This document shows, in pieces, positions 1 through 19,035 of a DNA stretch of 64,000 bases (within the stretch, counting starts at the first letter, position 1; the number at the start of each line of letters is the position of its first letter). The DNA lies in NCBI GenBank assembly GCA_902597385.1, contig CACJXQ010000007.1:4272-68271 (forward strand). The letters are read 5' to 3'. The translations under genes and the position numbers were made by a program. Under the pieces are notes generated by a model. The model saw nothing but the letters and a program-made list of their open reading frames with translations. It had not been told where the DNA came from and ran no database searches. The DNA comes from an uncultured Pseudomonadota bacterium. GTDB taxonomy: Bacteria > Pseudomonadota > Gammaproteobacteria > Ga0077536.

Positions 1-426
1 ATTCTTTGTAACCCAACGCTCCCCTTCCTTTAAACGTTCTTTTTTCCAAAATGGAGCATCAGATTTCAAGATCTCCATCATATGGCGACAAGAATCGAAT
101 GCATGCGCCCTATGCGACGCCCAGGTAGCGACAAGTACAATTGCGTCGCCAGGATAGATGCGCCCTACCCTATGGACAATCAAAGCCTCGTCTAGATCCC
201 AACGCTTCACAGCCTCTGCTCTGATATCTGAAAGTACCTTTTCCGCCATTTCGGGATAGTGCTCTAAAAAAAGCGACTCGACATTTTCGCCATCGTTAAA
301 GTCTCGCATGGTCCCAACAAAAATGGCATTCGCGCCTACTTTGGCACCATTGACAAAAATCTCTTTCTTGCATTTTTCTAAAGTCGCAAAGGGTTCAAAG
401 GACTCTTCAACAATCCTACATACCAT
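1..426 (-). CDS. moaE: Molybdopterin synthase catalytic subunit MoaE (C-terminus cut by the window edge)
   Basis: Not in the ORF track because no stop lies inside the window. My own minus-strand translation from the ATG at 426 reads MVCRIVEESFEPF...FVGTMRDFNDGENVESLFLEHYPEMAEKVL...VHRVGRIYPGDAIVLVATWASHRAHAF...APFWKKERLKEGERWV. This resembles E. coli MoaE (LEHYPGM, HRIG, APFWK). The start lies 1 nt after the moaD stop (428-430). Confidence 0.88.
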   Translation of the reverse strand, partial: MVCRIVEESFEPFATLEKCKKEIFVNGAKVGANAIFVGTMRDFNDGENVESLFLEHYPEMAEKVLSDIRAEAVKRWDLDEALIVHRVGRIYPGDAIVLVATWASHRAHAFDSCRHMMEILKSDAPFWKKERLKEGERWVTKN

Positions 427-13691: not shown

Positions 13692-14270
13692 CTAATTATC
13701 TGAACTATAAATTATTCCATATTTTTTAATTCGATGCCTAAGCGCCATCCTACCCAAACCCAGATTTCTGGCTGCCTTTGACACATTCCCTTTCGAAGCG
13801 GTCAAAGCTTCCCTAATCATAGCTTGATCGATGTCAGTTAAGGTTTGAAACCGCGTCTCAGCAGTAGATTTAGCAGAAGCATTCCATTCCTCAATTAATG
13901 AAGCCACCAGCTTCGATAACGTGTCTAGATCAATGGGCTTGCTCAGATAATCACACGCTTTCATTTTCATAGCTGCAACTGCGTTGTCAACAGTAGCATA
14001 GGCGGTCAGCACGAATACAGGGAAGTCGCGTTTCTCTTCGATTTCCTCTAGGAACTGCAACCCATTGCCATCCGGAAGCTGCATATCTAAAATAAGCAAG
14101 CCAGGTGACTTAGTCTTTAAGGACTTCCTAGCCTGTTCCAAACTACACACGTGGTCACAGAAATATCCGTCTTTCTTCAGACGCCTTTGGACCGCCCTAC
14201 CAAAGGCATGTTCATCATCCACCAATAACACTTTAGGTATCAGATCAGGATTTTTATCAGAAACGCTCAT
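13692..14270 (-). CDS. Response regulator with receiver and Fis-type HTH domains and no AAA+ domain
   Basis: 192 aa. The receiver domain shows VLLVDDE, LLILDMQLPDGNG and DYLSKP. The C-terminal HTH_8-like segment reads GNVSKAARNLGLGRMALRHRIKKYGI. Confidence 0.85.
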   Translation of the reverse strand: MSVSDKNPDLIPKVLLVDDEHAFGRAVQRRLKKDGYFCDHVCSLEQARKSLKTKSPGLLILDMQLPDGNGLQFLEEIEEKRDFPVFVLTAYATVDNAVAAMKMKACDYLSKPIDLDTLSKLVASLIEEWNASAKSTAETRFQTLTDIDQAMIREALTASKGNVSKAARNLGLGRMALRHRIKKYGIIYSSDN

Positions 14271-15808
14271 CCACTCTCTCGCTTTTGCTCTCGAAAATAA
14301 ATAACAGCTCTAGCACCTTTTCTCGCTGATTTTTCAAAATCAAATATAAAACCATGAATGTCGCAAACTTTTTGAACTATAGGGAGACCTAAGCCAGTGC
14401 CGAATTCTTTGGTGGAAGGACCTGGCTTCAATTCTGTAGCTCGATATTCAAACGGTAAACCGGGGCCGTCGTCTTCAATGTAGAACAAGTTCCCCTCAGG
14501 GTTCGTATAGAAGCCTATCCTGATCTCACCTTCTTTGGGACTAGCATCAATAGCATTGCTAAGCAGACAAAAGATAGCTTGTTCCATCAGATCTAAGTCG
14601 GCAGATATCTCTACCGACTTATCCCAGTTTTTATAAGTAATATAAACATTCTTAGGAAAAACCGGATTACTTAACAAACTTACTGCCCCCTCGACCACTT
14701 TTCGAAAATCAATTGTAGCAAAACGAGGACTCACTGGGTGCAGATAGGATACAAGTGAATTTATCCACTTAGTCAACTTATCTACGGTAGTCAAGATGGC
14801 AATTTGACTTTCATTAATCTCTGATCGAGATTGCCCTTCTTCCAGTAACTGAGCATTTGCTCGAATTGATGCTAAAGGATTTTTAACATTGTGAGCAATG
14901 ACAGGAACTAGCTTAGCTAACGCAGTTTGTCTTTCGTTACTTTTCAGCTCTTCACGGCTGAGTTCGAGTGCTTCGGCTATAAGATTGATTTCGGAAGCAA
15001 GCAGCCTCATCTCTTGAGCTCCCACCTCTGGTAATTTCTCTTTGGTAATGCCCTTCAGCAACGTTTCAGAATTCGAAACGATAGCCTGTAGTGGGGTCCA
15101 AAACTGACGATGTAAGCCTTTTCTGGATAGGAGTAACAAAAGGATGGACGTGATGATCAAAACTAACAATACGAGTGAACCAAGTGTACTCAAATTTTGC
15201 TTTGAAGACTCTTGAGAGAATCTCTGTTGCTCTATGACCCCTCTCAAAGATATCAACGCAAAGTGAAAATCACGCTTCATAAACACAATAAGGCAAGCCA
15301 GTTCCCCTAATTTACTCATGCCTGGTCTTAAACAGTGCTCCTTTGGACCCGCCTTTCTATCCTGAAAGTTCCATCTATCAACCACTGCACTTGAAGTACC
15401 TCCCCTCTCTGTTGATAGCGACCATTCATGTTGATAGTTAGTCAAAAGATCCAAGGCATAAGAGGCAGCAACTTGCAATTCTTGAACGGCATAGTCTTCT
15501 GCTCTGTTGTTAGACAATCTTCTTAGTTGATCTAATTGAACCAAACTATTCTTTAGCGAAACGCTCACGCTCTCTAGACTGCTCGACTGCAAATTGCCGC
15601 TTCTTTTTCTGAGAGAGCTTAAGTCATCTAAAAAATGTCTACCCAGGTTCTCATTAATACGAGACATCTCAGCCAAGCGAACTGTTTCCTGAGACCATTT
15701 CAACCAAAAGTATGACCAACCTAATCCCACAAATACTGATATGAAGACAAGAAGCACGAAAAATGTTTCATATATTAGTAATAGGCGTCTTATGGAGGAT
15801 TTATTCAA
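14267..15808 (-). CDS. Sensor histidine kinase with two TM helices and a ~170-aa periplasmic domain
   Basis: 513 aa with TM helices near residues 10-36 and 208-228. The H-box is IAHNVKNPLASIRANAQLL. The ATPase region shows N/G boxes (LLSNAIDAS, IEDDGPGLP, GTGLGLPIV). It overlaps the response regulator gene by 4 nt. Confidence 0.88.
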   Translation of the reverse strand: MNKSSIRRLLLIYETFFVLLVFISVFVGLGWSYFWLKWSQETVRLAEMSRINENLGRHFLDDLSSLRKRSGNLQSSSLESVSVSLKNSLVQLDQLRRLSNNRAEDYAVQELQVAASYALDLLTNYQHEWSLSTERGGTSSAVVDRWNFQDRKAGPKEHCLRPGMSKLGELACLIVFMKRDFHFALISLRGVIEQQRFSQESSKQNLSTLGSLVLLVLIITSILLLLLSRKGLHRQFWTPLQAIVSNSETLLKGITKEKLPEVGAQEMRLLASEINLIAEALELSREELKSNERQTALAKLVPVIAHNVKNPLASIRANAQLLEEGQSRSEINESQIAILTTVDKLTKWINSLVSYLHPVSPRFATIDFRKVVEGAVSLLSNPVFPKNVYITYKNWDKSVEISADLDLMEQAIFCLLSNAIDASPKEGEIRIGFYTNPEGNLFYIEDDGPGLPFEYRATELKPGPSTKEFGTGLGLPIVQKVCDIHGFIFDFEKSARKGARAVIYFREQKRESG

Positions 15809-15870
15809 ATGGTTACCTTTGATTAGGCTCTATTAACTCTTGATGCCTCTTGGGTTGAGCAACAGTATAA

Positions 15871-16404
15871 TCACCAAAACCACATCCGCCTAAAAAGGTG
15901 TCCGTGACCCTCTATGACGTGTAGAACTACACCCACCAAGTGCATGATTATTAAAAAGACAAGAAATAATGAAAAAACTACATGTAGTTGTGTGAAAAAT
16001 TCATTCAGGGGGGGGTCACTCCACCCCCAATAAGGCAATGGCAACGAGAAGAAACTTGTCTTATAACCGCTAAAGGAAGAAGACAAATAACCTGTTATTG
16101 GTTGCATCAATAACACGAAATAAAATGCCTTGTGCACGGCATCAGCTAACATACCTCTAAAGCGTCCTATTTCAGAAGGACGACCAGGTGGAGGGCTTTT
16201 AATACGCCATATCAAACGGAAAATTATTAAAAGAAAAGTGAGAATACCGAGCGACTTATGTAATGAGAAGAAAAATCCCCTGCTGCTGCCTTGGGGTAAA
16301 TCCACCATATACCAACCTAGAATAAACATAGTACAAACTAAGAGAACCGTAACCCAGTGAACCGTTACAGCTATTCTGTTATATCGATGTATCATGTTTT
16401 GCAT
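15871..16404 (-). CDS. Cytochrome b561 family protein (CybB-like)
   Basis: 177 aa with four TM helices. The N-terminal RIAVTVHWVTVLLV and later conserved His residues (FSLHKSLG, QLHVVFS) fit the family. Confidence 0.75.
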   Translation of the reverse strand: MQNMIHRYNRIAVTVHWVTVLLVCTMFILGWYMVDLPQGSSRGFFFSLHKSLGILTFLLIIFRLIWRIKSPPPGRPSEIGRFRGMLADAVHKAFYFVLLMQPITGYLSSSFSGYKTSFFSLPLPYWGWSDPPLNEFFTQLHVVFSLFLVFLIIMHLVGVVLHVIEGHGHLFRRMWFW

Positions 16405-16583: not shown

Positions 16584-17135
16584 ATGATTTTCTTTATTTT
16601 CATGTGCGCAATCTTTTTAAGCTCTTCGGCTAGCTCCTCTACACCCTATGTTATCAAAGTCGATAAGAGTGATAGTACCCTTAGAGTCGAAACCAATAGT
16701 GGGGAGAAAATAAAAACATTTAGCGTCGCTACTGGCCGAGGTGGTAAAGGGGATAAGAAGGAGATAGGGGATAAAAAAACTCCTGTGGGAACTTATTACG
16801 TTACGGGTTTTAACGAGAAAAGTAAGTTCGACTATTTTATTAGAATTAACTATCCTAATCTCAAAGACGCCTATTACGGTTATAAAAGCAGAAAAATAAA
16901 TAGAAATGAGTTTAAGAATATCTTTAACGCAGTCAGAGATGGAAAACAGCCTCCGCAGAACACCAAACTGGGTGGTGCAATTGGGATACACGGTATCGGA
17001 AAAGAAACAACAAAAAAGTTGCTGATCCATCGGAATATAGATTGGACAGAAGGCTGTGTTGCCTTGAGGAATTTCGAGGTCAAAGAATTAAAACCATTCG
17101 TCACTCTTGGGACAAAGGTAATCATAAGCGATTAG
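16584..17135 (+). CDS. L,D-transpeptidase (YkuD) family protein
   Basis: 183 aa with a signal peptide. The catalytic region is GIHGIG...(x17)...WTEGCVALRN, which matches the His...(S/T)xGC motif. Confidence 0.8.
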   Translation: MIFFIFMCAIFLSSSASSSTPYVIKVDKSDSTLRVETNSGEKIKTFSVATGRGGKGDKKEIGDKKTPVGTYYVTGFNEKSKFDYFIRINYPNLKDAYYGYKSRKINRNEFKNIFNAVRDGKQPPQNTKLGGAIGIHGIGKETTKKLLIHRNIDWTEGCVALRNFEVKELKPFVTLGTKVIISD

Positions 17136-17190
17136 CATAATCTCCTTATCCTATGTATATTAATGTATAGCGACTAATAAAGACTAGGAT

Positions 17191-17886
17191 ATGAAAAAAT
17201 TCGAACAAAACGAGCACTGGATCTTTCTTTATTGGCTAGTGTTCTTCAGCTTCTTAGCCTTCTTAATTACGGTGGCAACCCTAGAAGGTTATGTGGAACA
17301 ATTGTTTAATGCTGACAGAAGTAAAATTGTATTCTTAATAGCTGGTCTTTACATATATGGAACACTAAGGGCGGGGGCCCGAGCCAAATTTCTTTCGGAA
17401 GAGATAGACACACTAAGATTTCTCAGCTCTTGTCCTCCCCAAAATAGCGGAACACACCAAAAATATTGTAGGGACATCCTTCAGAATTTGCGACTTTTCG
17501 ACGACGAAAAAGATTATGGTTTCTATGAAGAGGAAAAAGAAGGTATCAATCTTTTGTTTTTTCTTCACGAAAGGTGCAAAGGCAATCACGAAATCAATTG
17601 GTTTGTGTCAGAATCAATACTTAAACTCGGATTGCTAGGCACAATTATTGGCTTTATCTTAATGTTGGGTCCGGTAACAGAAGTTACCACTTTCGACGTA
17701 AGCTCAGTACAACAGATATTAAGTAAGATGAGTGCCGGTATGGCAACAGCACTTTACACCACGTTAGCTGGAATTTTTGGGAGTTCGACCTTAGCCTTTC
17801 AAAACTTAATTTTGGATAAGGGGGCAGAGAATCTAATAAATGAACTAATTATTCTCAAAGGGAATGGTTCGGGTAAAGCTTTGTGA
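17191..17886 (+). CDS. MotA/TolQ/ExbB proton-channel family protein
   Basis: 231 aa with one or two N-terminal TM helices and a C-terminal TM pair. The pair carries the family signatures LKLGLLGTIIGFILML and GMATALYTTLAGIFGSS. Confidence 0.8.
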   Translation: MKKFEQNEHWIFLYWLVFFSFLAFLITVATLEGYVEQLFNADRSKIVFLIAGLYIYGTLRAGARAKFLSEEIDTLRFLSSCPPQNSGTHQKYCRDILQNLRLFDDEKDYGFYEEEKEGINLLFFLHERCKGNHEINWFVSESILKLGLLGTIIGFILMLGPVTEVTTFDVSSVQQILSKMSAGMATALYTTLAGIFGSSTLAFQNLILDKGAENLINELIILKGNGSGKAL

Positions 17887-18491
17887 ATAAATCAACTGCC
17901 CTCTTCAGTAAAAGTCGCAATACCTTCGACCCTTTCACCGACCTGTTATTTAATGCTTTACTCGGCTTCACTTTTCTTTTTTTAGTGGCAATCCTGTTTA
18001 TGAATCCAGTCTCCAAAAGCGGTATTGTTAATCCAAAGGCTGAGTATATCGTGACGGTTAATTGGCCAGATAACAACCCAGACGATATTGACATATGGGT
18101 GGAGGACCCTGTAGGAAATTTAATCTGGTTTAGGAACCGAGAAGCTGGCTTAGTTCACCTAGACAGAGACGATAGAGGGATCATAAACGACCAAATCGAA
18201 ATGGACGGACAGACCGTAGAAACCAGCCTCAATCAAGAGGTTGTAACTATTCGAGGACGCGTGACTGGAGAGTACGTGATAAATCTCCACTATTATGAAT
18301 CAAAAACAAACTTACCTGTAAAAGCTACAGTGGAGGTAGCAAAAATAAATCCAGCCGTAGAAATTGTTTACTATGGCGAAACAGTTTTGAAAGAAAAAGG
18401 AGTCGAAGAAACCGCCGTGCGATTTTCTATTGTTGAGGACGGAAGTGTCAATAACGTGAACACGAACAAGAAAAGTATAATTGTTTTATAA
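17883..18491 (+). CDS. Membrane-anchored protein with an ExbD/TolR-like N-terminal TM helix and an unassigned beta-rich periplasmic domain
   Basis: 202 aa. The GTG start overlaps the upstream stop (GTGA), suggesting translational coupling. The TM segment FDPFTDLLFNALLGFTFLFLVAILFM carries an Asp, as in ExbD/TolR. I do not recognise the C-terminal ~150 aa (IVTVNWPDNNPDDIDIWVEDPVGNLIWFRNRE...GEYVINLHYYES). Confidence 0.55.
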   Translation: MNKSTALFSKSRNTFDPFTDLLFNALLGFTFLFLVAILFMNPVSKSGIVNPKAEYIVTVNWPDNNPDDIDIWVEDPVGNLIWFRNREAGLVHLDRDDRGIINDQIEMDGQTVETSLNQEVVTIRGRVTGEYVINLHYYESKTNLPVKATVEVAKINPAVEIVYYGETVLKEKGVEETAVRFSIVEDGSVNNVNTNKKSIIVL

Positions 18492-18505
18492 GGGAAAATC
18501 TGATT

Positions 18506-19021
18506 ATGTTAGGAGTAATTAGTCTCGTTGGAAGCTATGTCCTAGTAGCATTGCTACTATTATCCTTAAATTTGTACTCTAATTGGGGTTGGAGAGTAAA
18601 AACAGGGGCAGTAACGCTAGTATCAATTTTCTATCTCTTAACCTACCTTTCGTTTCCACCCATTCTTGGTTGGCCAACGAAGGACAAAATCCCCGATGAT
18701 TTCAGATTAATTAGCGGTTATGTGCTAGAGCCAAACAAAAAGACGGGAGAGGATGGAAAGATATTCCTATGGCTAACAGATCTTTCGAAAAACCCAAAAG
18801 TAGCTAAGCCAAGAGCTTTCGTTTTGCCTTACTCCGACGAACTAAATCAAAAGGTAGCTTCTGCGTCCGATAAGCTAAAAAAAGGAAAACCCCAAATTGG
18901 AGAAGTACAAGAAAACAATAAGGAACTCTCTACCTCTTCCCAAGGTTTGTCTAAAAAACAGCCAAAAAGAATTGCTATAAACTTTTTTGATCTACCCGAC
19001 CCCTCGCTCCCATCAAAATAA
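18506..19021 (+). CDS. Hypothetical membrane protein (2 TM helices plus a Lys-rich soluble tail)
   Basis: 171 aa, starting 14 nt after the previous gene, with AAGGGA upstream as a possible ribosome-binding site. Two N-terminal hydrophobic helices. No family recognised. Confidence 0.5.
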   Translation: MLGVISLVGSYVLVALLLLSLNLYSNWGWRVKTGAVTLVSIFYLLTYLSFPPILGWPTKDKIPDDFRLISGYVLEPNKKTGEDGKIFLWLTDLSKNPKVAKPRAFVLPYSDELNQKVASASDKLKKGKPQIGEVQENNKELSTSSQGLSKKQPKRIAINFFDLPDPSLPSK

Positions 19022-19035
19022 AAGTGAGAATAAAT

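Follow-up and report, generated by a model that had tools for sequence, protein, structure and literature searches.

A conserved three-gene module with a MotA/ExbB/TolQ-family channel subunit and a predicted beta-sandwich partner in Alpha- and Gammaproteobacteria and phages

Results

Three coupled genes between an L,D-transpeptidase gene and tilS

The 64-kb stretch of DNA that we analysed (the window) carries three genes in the same direction on the forward strand: p1 (17191-17886, 231 amino acids), encoding a candidate MotA/ExbB/TolQ-family channel subunit; p2 (17883-18491, GTG start, 202 amino acids), encoding a predicted single-pass helix that bears an Asp and is followed by a beta-sandwich head; and p3 (18506-19021, 171 amino acids), encoding a putative third subunit. 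The p1/p2 junction reads ...GCT TTG TGA and contains the GTG start of p2, giving a GTGA overlap, while a 14-nt spacer separates the p2 stop codon from the ATG of p3. The 3' end of p3, ...CCA TCA AAA TAA, lies 14 nt from the stop codon of a convergent tilS gene, whose product scores above cutoff for both TIGR02432 and TIGR02433. Upstream, at 16584-17135 on the same strand, is a YkuD L,D-transpeptidase gene (Pfam YkuD, E=6.8e-23) whose product carries the His...Gly-Cys catalytic motif; we looked for a terminator between this gene and p1 and found none, and we regard the enzyme as a possible functional neighbour outside the core. The arrangement is as the initial annotation had it: three co-directional, coupled genes with a GTGA overlap and a 14-nt gap, flanked by an L,D-transpeptidase gene and convergent tilS. 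Each of the peptides it quoted can be read in the translations: LGLLGTIIGFILML, ALYTTLAGIFGS, FDPFTDLLFNALLGF, IVTVNWPDNNPDDIDIWVEDPVGNLIWFRNRE and VINLHYYES.

The trio had also been described as more AT-rich than its surroundings. Gene GC is indeed lower, at 0.39-0.41 against 0.430 +/- 0.020 for 53 open reading frames of the window (1-2 s.d. below the mean); GC3, however, is ordinary for p1, p2 and p3 (z = -0.4, +0.6 and -1.3) and gives no sign of foreign origin. Normal GC3 together with the deep synteny described below rules out a foreign island.

p1 resembles the pore hairpin of TolQ and ExbB

The initial annotation had recognised MotA/TolQ/ExbB signatures in p1, and profile searches agree: p1 matches PF01618 with E=2.3e-7 and 31 bits, above the gathering score of 22.9, over residues 146-199. 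Short forms of the protein from phages and SAR116 score 22.6-27.1 bits against the same model. A p1 family profile aligned by hhalign with E. coli TolQ (E=4e-4) and ExbB (E=3e-3) through the last two helices only and gave no match to E. coli MotA; profile searches of PDB sequences with p1 did not retrieve ExbB, TolQ or MotA, and the family match spans only about 55-65 residues.

The matching segment is a predicted pore hairpin (17611-17805, + strand; residues 141-205) in which K145, G147, L148-L149, G150, T151, G154, G183...T190, T191 and G194 are invariant across the p1 family alignment, as are the motifs G-L-L-G-T and T-T-L-x-G that include several of them. In the hhalign register T151 falls on the Thr of TolQ 'GLFGTVWG' and T191 on the Thr of TolQ 'ALIATAIG', and a G-x-x-G-T motif is kept in 54 of 57 viral p1 sequences. 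The cytoplasmic loop of p1 is unconserved, and phages and SAR116 encode a mini-p1 of 141-168 amino acids from which the loop is missing. By these sequence measures p1 belongs to the MotA/ExbB/TolQ family as a genuine but remote member; its hydropathy and charge, together with the mini forms, make it look like a four-helix protein of MotA-like topology rather than one of the three-helix ExbB type.

p2 joins an Asp-bearing helix to an all-beta head

p2 has 3047 homologues; at E<=1e-3 its relatives fall into 2006 clusters at 50% identity and come from at least 498 species genomes. Compared with 79 related genomes, p2 has a median identity of 63%, against 59% for AccA. Searches of p2 against Pfam, NCBIfam, PADLOC and PDB sequences (the last with both the single sequence and a profile) returned no match.

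The predicted transmembrane helix (17931-18005, + strand; residues 17-41, modelled as a helix at 17-40 by AlphaFold2) contains Asp20, encoded at 17940-17942. Asp occupies the aligned helix column in 99 of 102 diverse p2 representatives and in all 59 unique viral copies, upholding the earlier description of an ExbD/TolR-style helix with an embedded Asp. hhalign pairs 'DPFTDLL' of p2 with 'TPFIDVM' of ExbD, a seven-residue helix match in the 'PFxD' register; alignment with E. coli ExbD, TolR and MotB gave nothing past these seven residues, with probabilities of 0.3-1.9 for ExbD and TolR. Weak Pfam matches among the 102 members were to ExbD in two (sub-threshold) and to MotB_plug in two. From three Lys/Arg residues in the N-terminal tail we infer an N-in orientation.

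The helix is followed by a linker of about 10 residues and a membrane-proximal, strongly acidic head (18036-18467, + strand; residues about 52-195) with an invariant acidic cluster. The AlphaFold2 model (mean pLDDT 73.7) predicts an all-beta domain of 11 strands. Foldseek found no PDB entry below E=0.09 for the p2 model; the top entries were Ca-binding and beta-jelly-roll proteins and MmpS5, with no OmpA or MotB fold among them, and a search of BFVD returned generic beta-sandwich matches only. Tested against the ExbD/TolR family (PF02472), p2 thus has the Asp helix and lacks both the alpha/beta periplasmic domain and a profile match; a peptidoglycan-binding domain of the OmpA-like MotB type is likewise absent by Pfam, NCBIfam, hhalign and Foldseek. 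The beta-rich periplasmic part had been judged unlike ExbD, TolR or MotB, with an ordinary ExbD/TolR fold in the C-terminal domain named as the outcome that would overturn this; the all-beta model and the profile searches speak against such a fold.

The domain does, however, have distant relatives. A profile of diverse p2 sequences aligned with E. coli YfaP in hhalign over 75 columns (Prob 91.6, E=8e-7), placing p2 residues 51-143 on YfaP 139-216, and p2 relatives gave weak, sub-threshold Pfam matches to PPC (PF04151; 11 of 102) and DUF2135 (PF09906; 8 of 102), with none for the p2 of the window. These matches indicate that the head is distantly homologous to the DUF2135/PPC sandwich, a relationship of distant homology and not of family membership.

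p3 is predicted to combine a membrane hairpin, a small barrel and a C-terminal motif

No family match to p3 was found by sequence or profile in Pfam, NCBIfam, PADLOC or PDB sequences, and its AlphaFold model (pLDDT 77.1) retrieved no PDB entry below E=0.36 with Foldseek. The model predicts a transmembrane hairpin (18509-18667, + strand; residues 2-54) of two helices, 2-24 and 29-54, that coincide with hydropathy peaks, and then a small, OB-like beta-barrel with one helix (18698-18910, + strand; residues about 65-135), built of strands 65-74, 85-92, 103-108 and 130-135 and helix 111-125. The top Foldseek matches, although weak, were OB folds, and weak Pfam matches to DUF4131 recurred in 11 of 54 p3 members. 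A Lys-rich, disordered linker (residues 137-155, pLDDT below 50) leads to the C-terminal motif INFFDLPDPSLPSK (18977-19018, + strand), whose Pro-rich family consensus is IEF(F/Y)DLPDPLFP(E/D)K. The two-helix architecture, the Lys-rich tail and the lack of a recognisable family had all been noted before, and our searches and model agree with them.

The short loop between the helices contains two Lys/Arg residues, including the invariant K32, and from these we infer that the loop faces in and the C terminus out. The soluble part is itself net basic (21 Lys/Arg against 15 Asp/Glu); because of this, the topology is ambiguous and the soluble part may instead lie in the cytoplasm. TonB and TolA have a single N-terminal helix with an S-H-L-S type motif, a Pro-rich or helical spacer and a characteristic C-terminal domain; p3 instead has two predicted helices with no conserved His in them, and shows no TonB_C or TolA match by sequence, profile or fold.

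The terminal Lys and the neighbouring transpeptidase suggested a wall-anchored variant of the module, in which the L,D-transpeptidase would cross-link the C-terminal Lys of p3 to peptidoglycan, as with Braun's lipoprotein, and this covalent anchor would replace an OmpA-like domain. Lys is the last residue of p3 in 70 of 78 genome loci and in 95 of 105 database homologues, it ends a disordered linker long enough to clear the membrane surface, and a YkuD gene with the His...Gly-Cys motif lies directly upstream in 67 of 80 related loci with no intervening terminator. Viral p3 copies keep the motif but usually carry one to six residues beyond the Lys, so that the final residue is not Lys in 50 of 59 unique copies, and on these copies we downgraded strict C-terminal-Lys cross-linking. 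The YkuD adjacency, moreover, is limited to a single clade, where synteny extends to many unrelated genes, and is absent from the SAR116, Geminicoccaceae-like, Neptuniibacter and phage contexts; the scheme also depends on the putative periplasmic location of the p3 tail. We consider wall anchoring of this kind quite improbable.

The trio is inherited together in bacteria and phages

Among 80 related genome loci p1 adjoins p2 in 79 and p3 adjoins p2 in 78, with intergenic gaps mostly of -4 to +30 and 11 to 100 nt. This adjacency in 78-79 of 80 genomes and the thousands of p2 relatives counted above put the three reading frames beyond chance: they are real genes. The locus is syntenic in 50-67 of the 80 genomes, in a core region with tilS, accA and dnaE. 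SAR116, Geminicoccaceae-like bacteria and Neptuniibacter (a cultured carrier, CP180549.1) also have the trio, each in a neighbourhood unrelated to this one, and streamlined ocean bacteria retain it; a plasmid search found no copies. Optional fourth genes encode exported proteins: some are DUF3108-like lipoproteins, others VWA+FHA proteins that begin with a signal peptide or transmembrane segment. The VWA+FHA gene lies 3' of the trio in 53 of 80 relatives, encodes no Asp helix and is absent from the window. A functional link to PQQ dehydrogenases was also considered, but they accompany the trio in just three or four contexts and we note them as a side observation.

Among viruses, the whole trio is present in cultured Rhizobium/Sinorhizobium phages of several unrelated groups and in at least 78 viral metagenome contigs in IMG/VR. 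The phage carriers include 16-3 of S. meliloti 41 (p039/p040 region) and RHph_N3_13 and RHph_I1_9 of R. etli / R. phaseoli. In the viral loci p1 adjoins p2 in 78 of 80 cases and p3 adjoins p2 in 79 of 80; the phage p1 is the loop-less form, and across 59 non-redundant viral loci the trio is the sole conserved gene set. Co-conservation, on which the initial annotation had staked its three-gene module, is therefore seen in genomes and viruses alike, and the linkage of the three genes is obligatory. PHROGs holds no family for p1, p2 or p3, phage copies included; one phage genome in the literature has a gene annotated in passing as 'ExbB'. Since phages carry the complete minimal trio, three small genes would suffice for function in a foreign cell.

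This independence bears on whether the trio could be an ordinary energiser of the Ton, Tol, flagellar-stator or gliding type with partners encoded elsewhere, or a recent AT-rich island. p1 does belong to the same Pfam family as the known energisers, and the lower gene GC fits an island. Yet p2 has neither an ExbD/TolR nor an OmpA-like domain, p3 lacks the single His helix of TonB and TolA as well as a TonB-type C-terminal domain, p1 scores far under every NCBIfam MotA or ZorA cutoff, and GC3 and synteny are those of resident genes. In distant genomes and in phages the trio stands alone, which argues against membership in a Ton, Tol or gliding system. A tblastn search of the window with E. coli ExbB/D, TolQ/R/A and MotA/B gave no match, and neither the window nor the phages encode a wall or outer-membrane partner, in keeping with the earlier remark that no TonB, TolA, Pal or peptidoglycan-binding partner is found nearby. 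We reject a canonical Ton, Tol or Mot member on the p2 domain, the p3 architecture and the NCBIfam scores of p1, and give this whole group of explanations hardly any credence.

The phage copies raise a different alternative, that of a phage-host conflict module serving defence, superinfection exclusion or anti-defence, in which a MotA/B-like complex senses or perturbs the envelope in the manner of Zorya. Phage membrane genes used against other phages can show the distribution seen here, spread over unrelated rhizobiophage groups and many IMG/VR contigs, and p1 has weak matches to ZorA (PADLOC, E=4e-4 to 3e-2; NCBIfam, about 0.07). The gene neighbourhoods fit such a role poorly: no effector gene (nuclease, NTPase or similar) lies beside the trio in genomes or phages, and the locus sits in the deeply syntenic tilS, accA and dnaE core rather than in a variable island. 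PADLOC contains neither p2 nor p3, p2 is conserved like AccA and unlike fast-evolving defence genes, and the trio is missing from plasmids while being kept in streamlined genomes. We think a conflict role unlikely.

Discussion

A candidate inner-membrane machine with a proposed periplasmic output

We favour, with modest confidence, the reading that the three proteins work together as a single machine of the inner membrane, a hitherto undescribed form of the MotA/ExbB/TolQ class with its output in the periplasm; in the databases and in the literature on motor families, phage-borne ExbB, DUF2135 and VWA/FHA we found no description of the trio. The data show that p1 belongs to the family, that p2 has the Asp helix and a fold other than that of ExbD, that the three genes are obligatorily linked, and that they are widely distributed, in phages too. 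The rest is proposal: how ring and axle would assemble and in what numbers, how p3 would lie in the membrane, which way the output would be directed and what role the machine would have in the cell.

In this proposal p1 would form an ion-conducting ring, probably with four membrane helices per subunit, the last two bearing the ExbB/TolQ-type Gly/Thr pore motif, and the N-in Asp helix of p2 would be inserted in the ring as in ExbD, TolR and MotB; a ring-and-axle geometry and a 5:2 stoichiometry of p1 and p2 are suggested by analogy. On the axle an acidic DUF2135/PPC-type beta-sandwich, which probably binds Ca2+, would replace the alpha/beta or OmpA-like domain. As an obligatory third subunit, p3 may dock its hairpin outside the p1 ring and hold its barrel beside the p2 head, with the Lys-rich tail and Pro-rich motif as the likely contact with a cell wall or outer-membrane partner. 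Flow of H+ (or Na+) through p1/p2 would set the two subunits in motion relative to each other, and p3 would relay the movement to the periplasm. Because the cytoplasmic loop of p1 is unconserved and is missing in the phage and SAR116 forms, the work would be done in the membrane or the periplasm, and the machine would transduce force towards the envelope, much as Tol-Pal or Ton does.

The same proteins might do no mechanical work at all: p1 and p2 could make a gated ion channel or a static scaffold, with the conserved beta-sandwich binding or sensing, for instance, Ca2+ or a glycan in the periplasm. The likeness of p1 to known motors is confined to its pore hairpin, the head of p2 has a fold of the binding type and an acidic cluster that is invariant, and no force-receiving partner is encoded in the window or in phages. 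What is conserved, though, are exactly the residues that in known motors couple ion flow to movement: an Asp on the helix that is inserted and a Thr on each of the two pore helices; every characterised member of the MotA/ExbB/TolQ family is, as far as we know, a mechanical transducer; and the strict co-inheritance of a third membrane subunit, one that carries a tethered motif, fits a transducer better than a channel. A non-motor function therefore seems doubtful to us.

More tentatively, and at somewhat less than even odds in our judgement, the trio may be a fourth or fifth lineage of ion-driven ring-and-axle motors beside Mot, Exb/Tol, Gld and Zor, with its own axle head and transducer: a housekeeping envelope machine of abundant marine Alpha- and Gammaproteobacteria that phages carry as a self-sufficient three-gene cassette. 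If so, viruses would be placing a portable, proton-powered machine in the inner membrane of the host as they infect it. To our knowledge, Gram-negative cells deliver inner-membrane energy to the periplasm and outer membrane by no means other than the Mot, Exb/Tol, Gld and Zor motors, and each new motor lineage that we know of has so far exposed a new cell-envelope process. The trio is widespread and kept by streamlined ocean bacteria, and its putative axle protein, p2, is conserved like a core metabolic enzyme. For structural and single-molecule studies the phage mini-trio is conveniently small, and genetics could start from phage 16-3 of Sinorhizobium meliloti or from the R. etli phages.

Relation to known systems

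The closest likeness is to ExbB-ExbD and TolQ-TolR: p1 shares their Pfam family and Gly/Thr pore motif, with TolQ and then ExbB as best profile matches; p2 matches ExbD in its predicted N-in helix, whose conserved Asp falls in the 'PFxD' register; and the genes are adjacent, with overlapping stop and start codons. A third membrane subunit always encoded alongside recalls TonB and TolA. The trio departs from these systems in each protein: p1 apparently has four helices rather than three and a dispensable cytoplasmic part, in p2 the alpha/beta fold gives way to an all-beta sandwich of DUF2135/PPC-like type, joined to the helix by about 10 linker residues, and p3 is predicted to be a two-helix hairpin with a small barrel, lacking a His helix and a TonB/TolA C-terminal domain. 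The p2 head shares with the DUF2135 domain of YfaP the motifs W-x-D...D-x-D-x-x-V...P-x-G and G-x-Y-x-V-x-x-x-Y-Y; YfaP and PPC proteins, however, are soluble exported proteins without an Asp helix or a motor partner, and no p2 member reaches the Pfam thresholds.

Zorya ZorA-ZorB offers another MotA/B-like membrane pair outside motility and uptake, and one to which p1 has weak matches, although against NCBIfam ZorA models p1 reaches 11.6-12 bits where the cutoffs are 100-700. The trio differs in lacking the long ZorA tail, the wall-binding ZorB domain and the ZorC/D/E effectors, and in its core rather than island context. In GldL-GldM and PorL-PorM the axle has periplasmic beta-sandwich domains and no wall-binding domain, and the machine includes a membrane protein with two helices; a beta-sandwich on the putative axle and a two-helix membrane protein are found here too. 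GldL, however, lacks the MotA/ExbB signature of p1, one membrane-proximal domain makes up the head of p2 where those motors have a long periplasm-spanning rod, and the trio occurs in Alpha- and Gammaproteobacteria and phages, not in Bacteroidota, with no sequence match between the two systems.

A precedent for a changed axle comes from a TolQ-like ring with a TPH-vWA partner, in which an Asp helix replaces TolR/ExbD and the periplasmic domain is not of the ExbD type (Williams-Jones et al. 2025, PMC12204202). That pairing shows that the axle subunit of this motor class tolerates domain swaps. Compared with the TPH-vWA systems, p2 bears a predicted beta-sandwich and not a vWA domain, the axle is encoded by one gene rather than a heterologous pair, and a third subunit is obligatory.

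Layout and composition of the p1-p2-p3 locus

The three genes of the cassette, p1 (channel subunit), p2 (axle subunit) and p3 (third subunit), lie on the forward strand at 17191-17886 (231 aa), 17883-18491 (GTG start, 202 aa) and 18506-19021 (171 aa) of the window; the p1 stop and p2 start overlap in a GTGA, 14 nt separate the p2 stop from the p3 start, and p3, ending in P-S-K-stop, is followed after 14 nt by the stop of the convergent gene. This co-directional layout is as the initial annotation had described it, the peptides that it quoted were all found in the translations, and the flanks are those it had named: a YkuD L,D-transpeptidase gene upstream (16584-17135; Pfam E=6.8e-23) and the convergent tilS downstream, with accA and dnaE beyond it. 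Between the transpeptidase gene and p1, promoter and terminator searches gave nothing significant, site counts being equal to the shuffled expectation. The YkuD protein itself matched the LdtF/DpaA/YafK amidase model far below threshold (E=1.6e-6, 27 bits, cutoff 365), so that it may act in either cross-linking or de-linking. Further upstream, on the opposite strand (13692-16404), are a two-component system (histidine kinase and NtrC/ActR-like regulator) and a cytochrome b561 gene, whose synteny with the trio extends to 46-51 of 80 genomes. GC skew is negative throughout the window (1-64000) except at 9-11 kb, 16-19 kb and 39-42 kb; the genes at 16-19 kb are on the + strand.

The trio had also been described as looking more AT-rich than the flanking core genes. 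Its gene GC, 0.39-0.41, is indeed below the mean of 0.430 ± 0.020 for the 53 ORFs in the window that are 150 aa or longer, but the difference is not meaningful: third-position GC is ordinary (z = -0.4, +0.6 and -1.3), and the low values therefore reflect the amino-acid make-up of membrane proteins. Ordinary third-position GC together with deep synteny led us to rule out a recently acquired island and to reject a foreign origin.

p1 belongs to the MotA/ExbB/TolQ family as a distant member

Residues 146-199 of p1 match MotA_ExbB (PF01618) with 31 bits against a Pfam gathering score of 22.9; matches to the NCBIfam MotA/ZorA and PADLOC ZorA models were only marginal. In hhalign, a profile of 15 p1 orthologues gave no alignment with MotA but matched E. 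coli TolQ (E=4e-4) and ExbB (E=3e-3), in both cases along the two final helices; Thr151 and Thr191, invariant in this profile, pair with both TolQ pore threonines. The channel signatures proposed earlier are thereby confirmed, and p1 belongs to the MotA/ExbB/TolQ family and has the coupling threonines; since a profile search of PDB sequences found nothing, its membership is a distant one.

Hydropathy, a 'RAGARAK' stretch after the second hydrophobic segment and the short natural forms of p1, in which short loops separate four hydrophobic helices, together suggest four membrane helices with both ends cytoplasmic, so that a topology like that of MotA would be paired with a pore motif of the ExbB/TolQ kind. 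Conservation is poor between helices 2 and 3 (about residues 63-140), and SAR116 and phage versions lack this segment; the cytoplasmic loop is dispensable.

p2 joins an ExbD-like helix to a different periplasmic fold

In Pfam, NCBIfam, PADLOC and the PDB sequences, the window p2 had no match. Its AlphaFold2 model (pLDDT 73.7) has a single helix (residues 17-40), which a linker of some 10 residues joins to eleven strands; loop 89-102 is highly conserved, yet is modelled with low confidence. Across 36 homologues of 64-94% identity the DPFTDLLFNALLGFT helix is invariant and the soluble part, which in the window protein is strongly acidic (16 K/R versus 26 D/E), is highly conserved (mean column identity 79%). 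Among 102 representatives that are 31-51% identical to the window p2, W61, D68, D70, D96, G99 and E119 are invariant and the helix Asp is kept in 99; one of the other three has an Asp two residues upstream, another has its sole early Asp at residue 2, ahead of the helix, and the third has none within its first 45 residues.

When p2 was compared with ExbD, TolR and MotB by hhalign, its 'DPFTDLL' aligned with 'TPFIDVM' of ExbD and nothing further was found; as the head aligned with none of the three, we reject ordinary Ton, Tol or Mot membership. Foldseek gave no PDB match to the model below E=0.09, the nearest structures being Ca-binding or jelly-roll sandwiches and MmpS5. With a diverse p2 profile, however, hhalign paired the head with DUF2135 of E. 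coli YfaP (Prob 91.6, E=8e-7, 75 columns), with which it has signature motifs in common, and sub-threshold Pfam matches among the 102 members were to PPC in 11 and to DUF2135 in 8. On the strength of the ExbD-like helix match, the all-strand model, the YfaP alignment and these sub-threshold matches, p2 combines an inserted helix of the ExbD/TolR type with a sandwich distantly like DUF2135/PPC, with the coupling Asp on the helix and a different periplasmic fold beyond it. The initial annotation was thus right about the single helix with its embedded Asp and about a periplasmic part unlike ExbD, TolR or MotB, to which the distant DUF2135/PPC relatives are to be added; its overall reading, a MotA/ExbB-like module with a non-ExbD periplasmic domain, is supported.

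p3 is predicted to combine a hairpin, a small barrel and a conserved tail motif

For p3, which had been described as a two-TM protein with a Lys-rich tail and no recognisable family, Pfam, NCBIfam, PADLOC, PDB and Foldseek indeed returned no sequence, profile or fold match. Its predicted structure (pLDDT 77.1) begins with a helical hairpin (residues 2-24 and 29-54), which leads into a small barrel that includes one helix (65-135); the Lys-rich stretch that comes next (137-155) is disordered, and a final strand packs on the barrel. The Foldseek leaders, all weak, were OB folds, and 11 of 54 p3 members weakly matched DUF4131, which covers the ComEC N-terminal membrane helices and OB domain; we take this likeness as a lead only. 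In the hairpin loop K32 is invariant and acidic residues are absent, a pattern that favours a loop-in, tail-out orientation, but the net basic charge of the soluble part runs contrary to it, and by these residues the topology is ambiguous.

The p3 C terminus carries the motif IEF(F/Y)DLPDPLFP(E/D)K, and Lys is the final residue in 70 of 78 genome loci and 95 of 105 database homologues. Viral copies retain the motif, usually with 1-6 extra residues, so that a short linear motif on a tether describes it better than a strict C-terminal Lys does. The viral C termini also speak against a covalent wall anchor, in which the adjacent YkuD enzyme would link the p3 Lys to the wall; attractive as this is for the gammaproteobacterial clade, YkuD adjacency is restricted to one clade, and we consider such anchoring very improbable.

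The trio is conserved across cellular genomes

With each GTDB species represented by one genome, a scan found a p2 relative in at least 498 genomes; in the best 80 of these loci p1 adjoins p2 in 79 and p3 does so in 78, with spacers mostly of -4 to +30 nt and 11-100 nt, so the genes that had been grouped as one module are co-conserved. Against the window, median identities are 63% (p2), 59% (AccA), 45% (p3) and 36% (p1). The p2 relatives form 2006 clusters (50% identity, E<=1e-3) and, where named, are hypothetical proteins, except for one JGI record, 'YfaP (DUF2135 family)'.

A YkuD gene lies upstream of the trio in 67 of the 80 loci, with a DUF302 gene between it and p1 in 61 (for example, L001:4723-5226); a signal/TM, VWA and FHA protein is encoded after p3 in 53 of 80 gammaproteobacterial loci (such as L001:7270-8841, ~500 aa), and tilS and accA lie downstream in 50-55. 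The DUF302 and VWA+FHA genes are both missing from the window and its closest relatives (L003, L028, L031, L033, L040 and L044), and it is the loss of the latter that leaves p3 abutting tilS (window 19022-19035). The DUF302 protein of relatives is exported; its gene is missing from window 17136-17190.

Outside the clade of the window the trio is kept and its neighbours are wholly different; other contexts include SAR116, a Geminicoccaceae-like lineage, a compact genome with housekeeping neighbours, a JGI contig and the cultured Neptuniibacter sp. CP180549.1. In Neptuniibacter (L095:8526-9242), Thiodiazotropha and alphaproteobacterial loci, p3 is followed by a gene for a DUF3108-like lipoprotein (also L055, L064, L070, L073 and L077), which has a lipobox with no Asp at +2 and is a candidate outer-membrane partner.

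A PQQ-dependent methanol/ethanol-type dehydrogenase gene adjoins the trio in three otherwise unrelated contexts (L095:4884-6638, L075:2940-4640 and the JGI contig), with pqqABCDE nearby in one; the link may be coincidental. Two metagenome-assembled genomes have two loci each: CAXXLL01 has the intact L008 and, on contig 3, a degraded second copy (L023:5831-6927; p1 fragment, intact p2, truncated p3), and PBJS01 has L038 and L048.

Phages carry the whole cassette

A tblastn search of cultured phage genomes with p2 gave 28-29 records, all of them Rhizobium or Sinorhizobium phages; no trio was found in the other cultured phage groups of the collection. The carriers fall into several unrelated groups: T4-like Pootjesviridae (P10VF, RL38J1, RHph_I1_9 and others), the 68-kb RHph_N3_13 group, RHph_TM3_3_14B, the temperate 16-3 (p039/p040) and AP-16-3, and NV1.1.1. 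In RHph_I1_9 (trio at L097:4534-6023) and RHph_N3_13 (L098:4479-5986), the gene upstream of p2 encodes 141-148 aa that match MotA_ExbB (E=7e-6 and 9e-5) and the p1 profile (Prob 91-94); the product of the downstream gene (144-153 aa) matches the p3 profile with Prob 91 in one phage and 21 in the other. The rhizobiophage trio sits among early or replication genes and is annotated as hypothetical throughout. No close chromosomal relatives of the rhizobiophage proteins were found, the next matches being metagenomic and at most 51% identical, and a plasmid search found no copy of the trio.

An IMG/VR scan yielded 115 contigs, and in the best 80 p1 adjoins p2 in 78 and p3 does so in 79. Across 59 non-redundant viral loci the trio is the sole conserved gene set, the next family occurring in 9; among the flanking genes there are matches to PHROG families specific to phages, one of them at E=9e-279. 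The median length of viral p1 is 168 aa; 54 of 57 copies retain the G-x-x-G-T motif, and the helix Asp is present in every viral p2. The trio is widespread and is inherited as a unit in cells and viruses, and the presence of the whole cassette in phages was unexpected. Such carriage, with the weak ZorA matches of p1, might point to a conflict system (defence, exclusion or anti-defence); against this stand the location in the core genome, the very strong conservation of p2, the lack of effectors alongside and the retention of the trio in streamlined genomes, and we regard it as unlikely.

A proposed ion-driven machine and its nearest known relatives

We slightly favour the view that the trio is a three-subunit variant, not described before, of the ion-driven motor class; no description of it was found in the databases and literature searched. 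By analogy with solved family members (PMC9389320), p1 would form a ring around a p2 dimer, possibly at the 5:2 stoichiometry that the initial annotation had suggested, and ion flow would shift p1 relative to p2. Because no cytoplasmic element is required, output would be on the periplasmic side, by way of the p2 head close to the membrane and of the barrel and tail of p3. That p1 and p2 act instead as a channel or scaffold seems to us doubtful. The motor could have an envelope-directed role analogous to that of Tol-Pal or Ton, which the optional fourth genes fit, since their products are exported: the DUF3108-like lipoprotein, or the VWA+FHA protein with its N-terminal signal peptide or TM segment. 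Among published systems the closest parallel is described in section 8 of PMC12204202, a family in which TolQ-like rings are paired with Asp-helix vWA proteins and which shows that an axle subunit can carry non-ExbD domains; from those systems, as that section presents them, the trio differs in its axle domain, its single axle gene and its obligatory third subunit.
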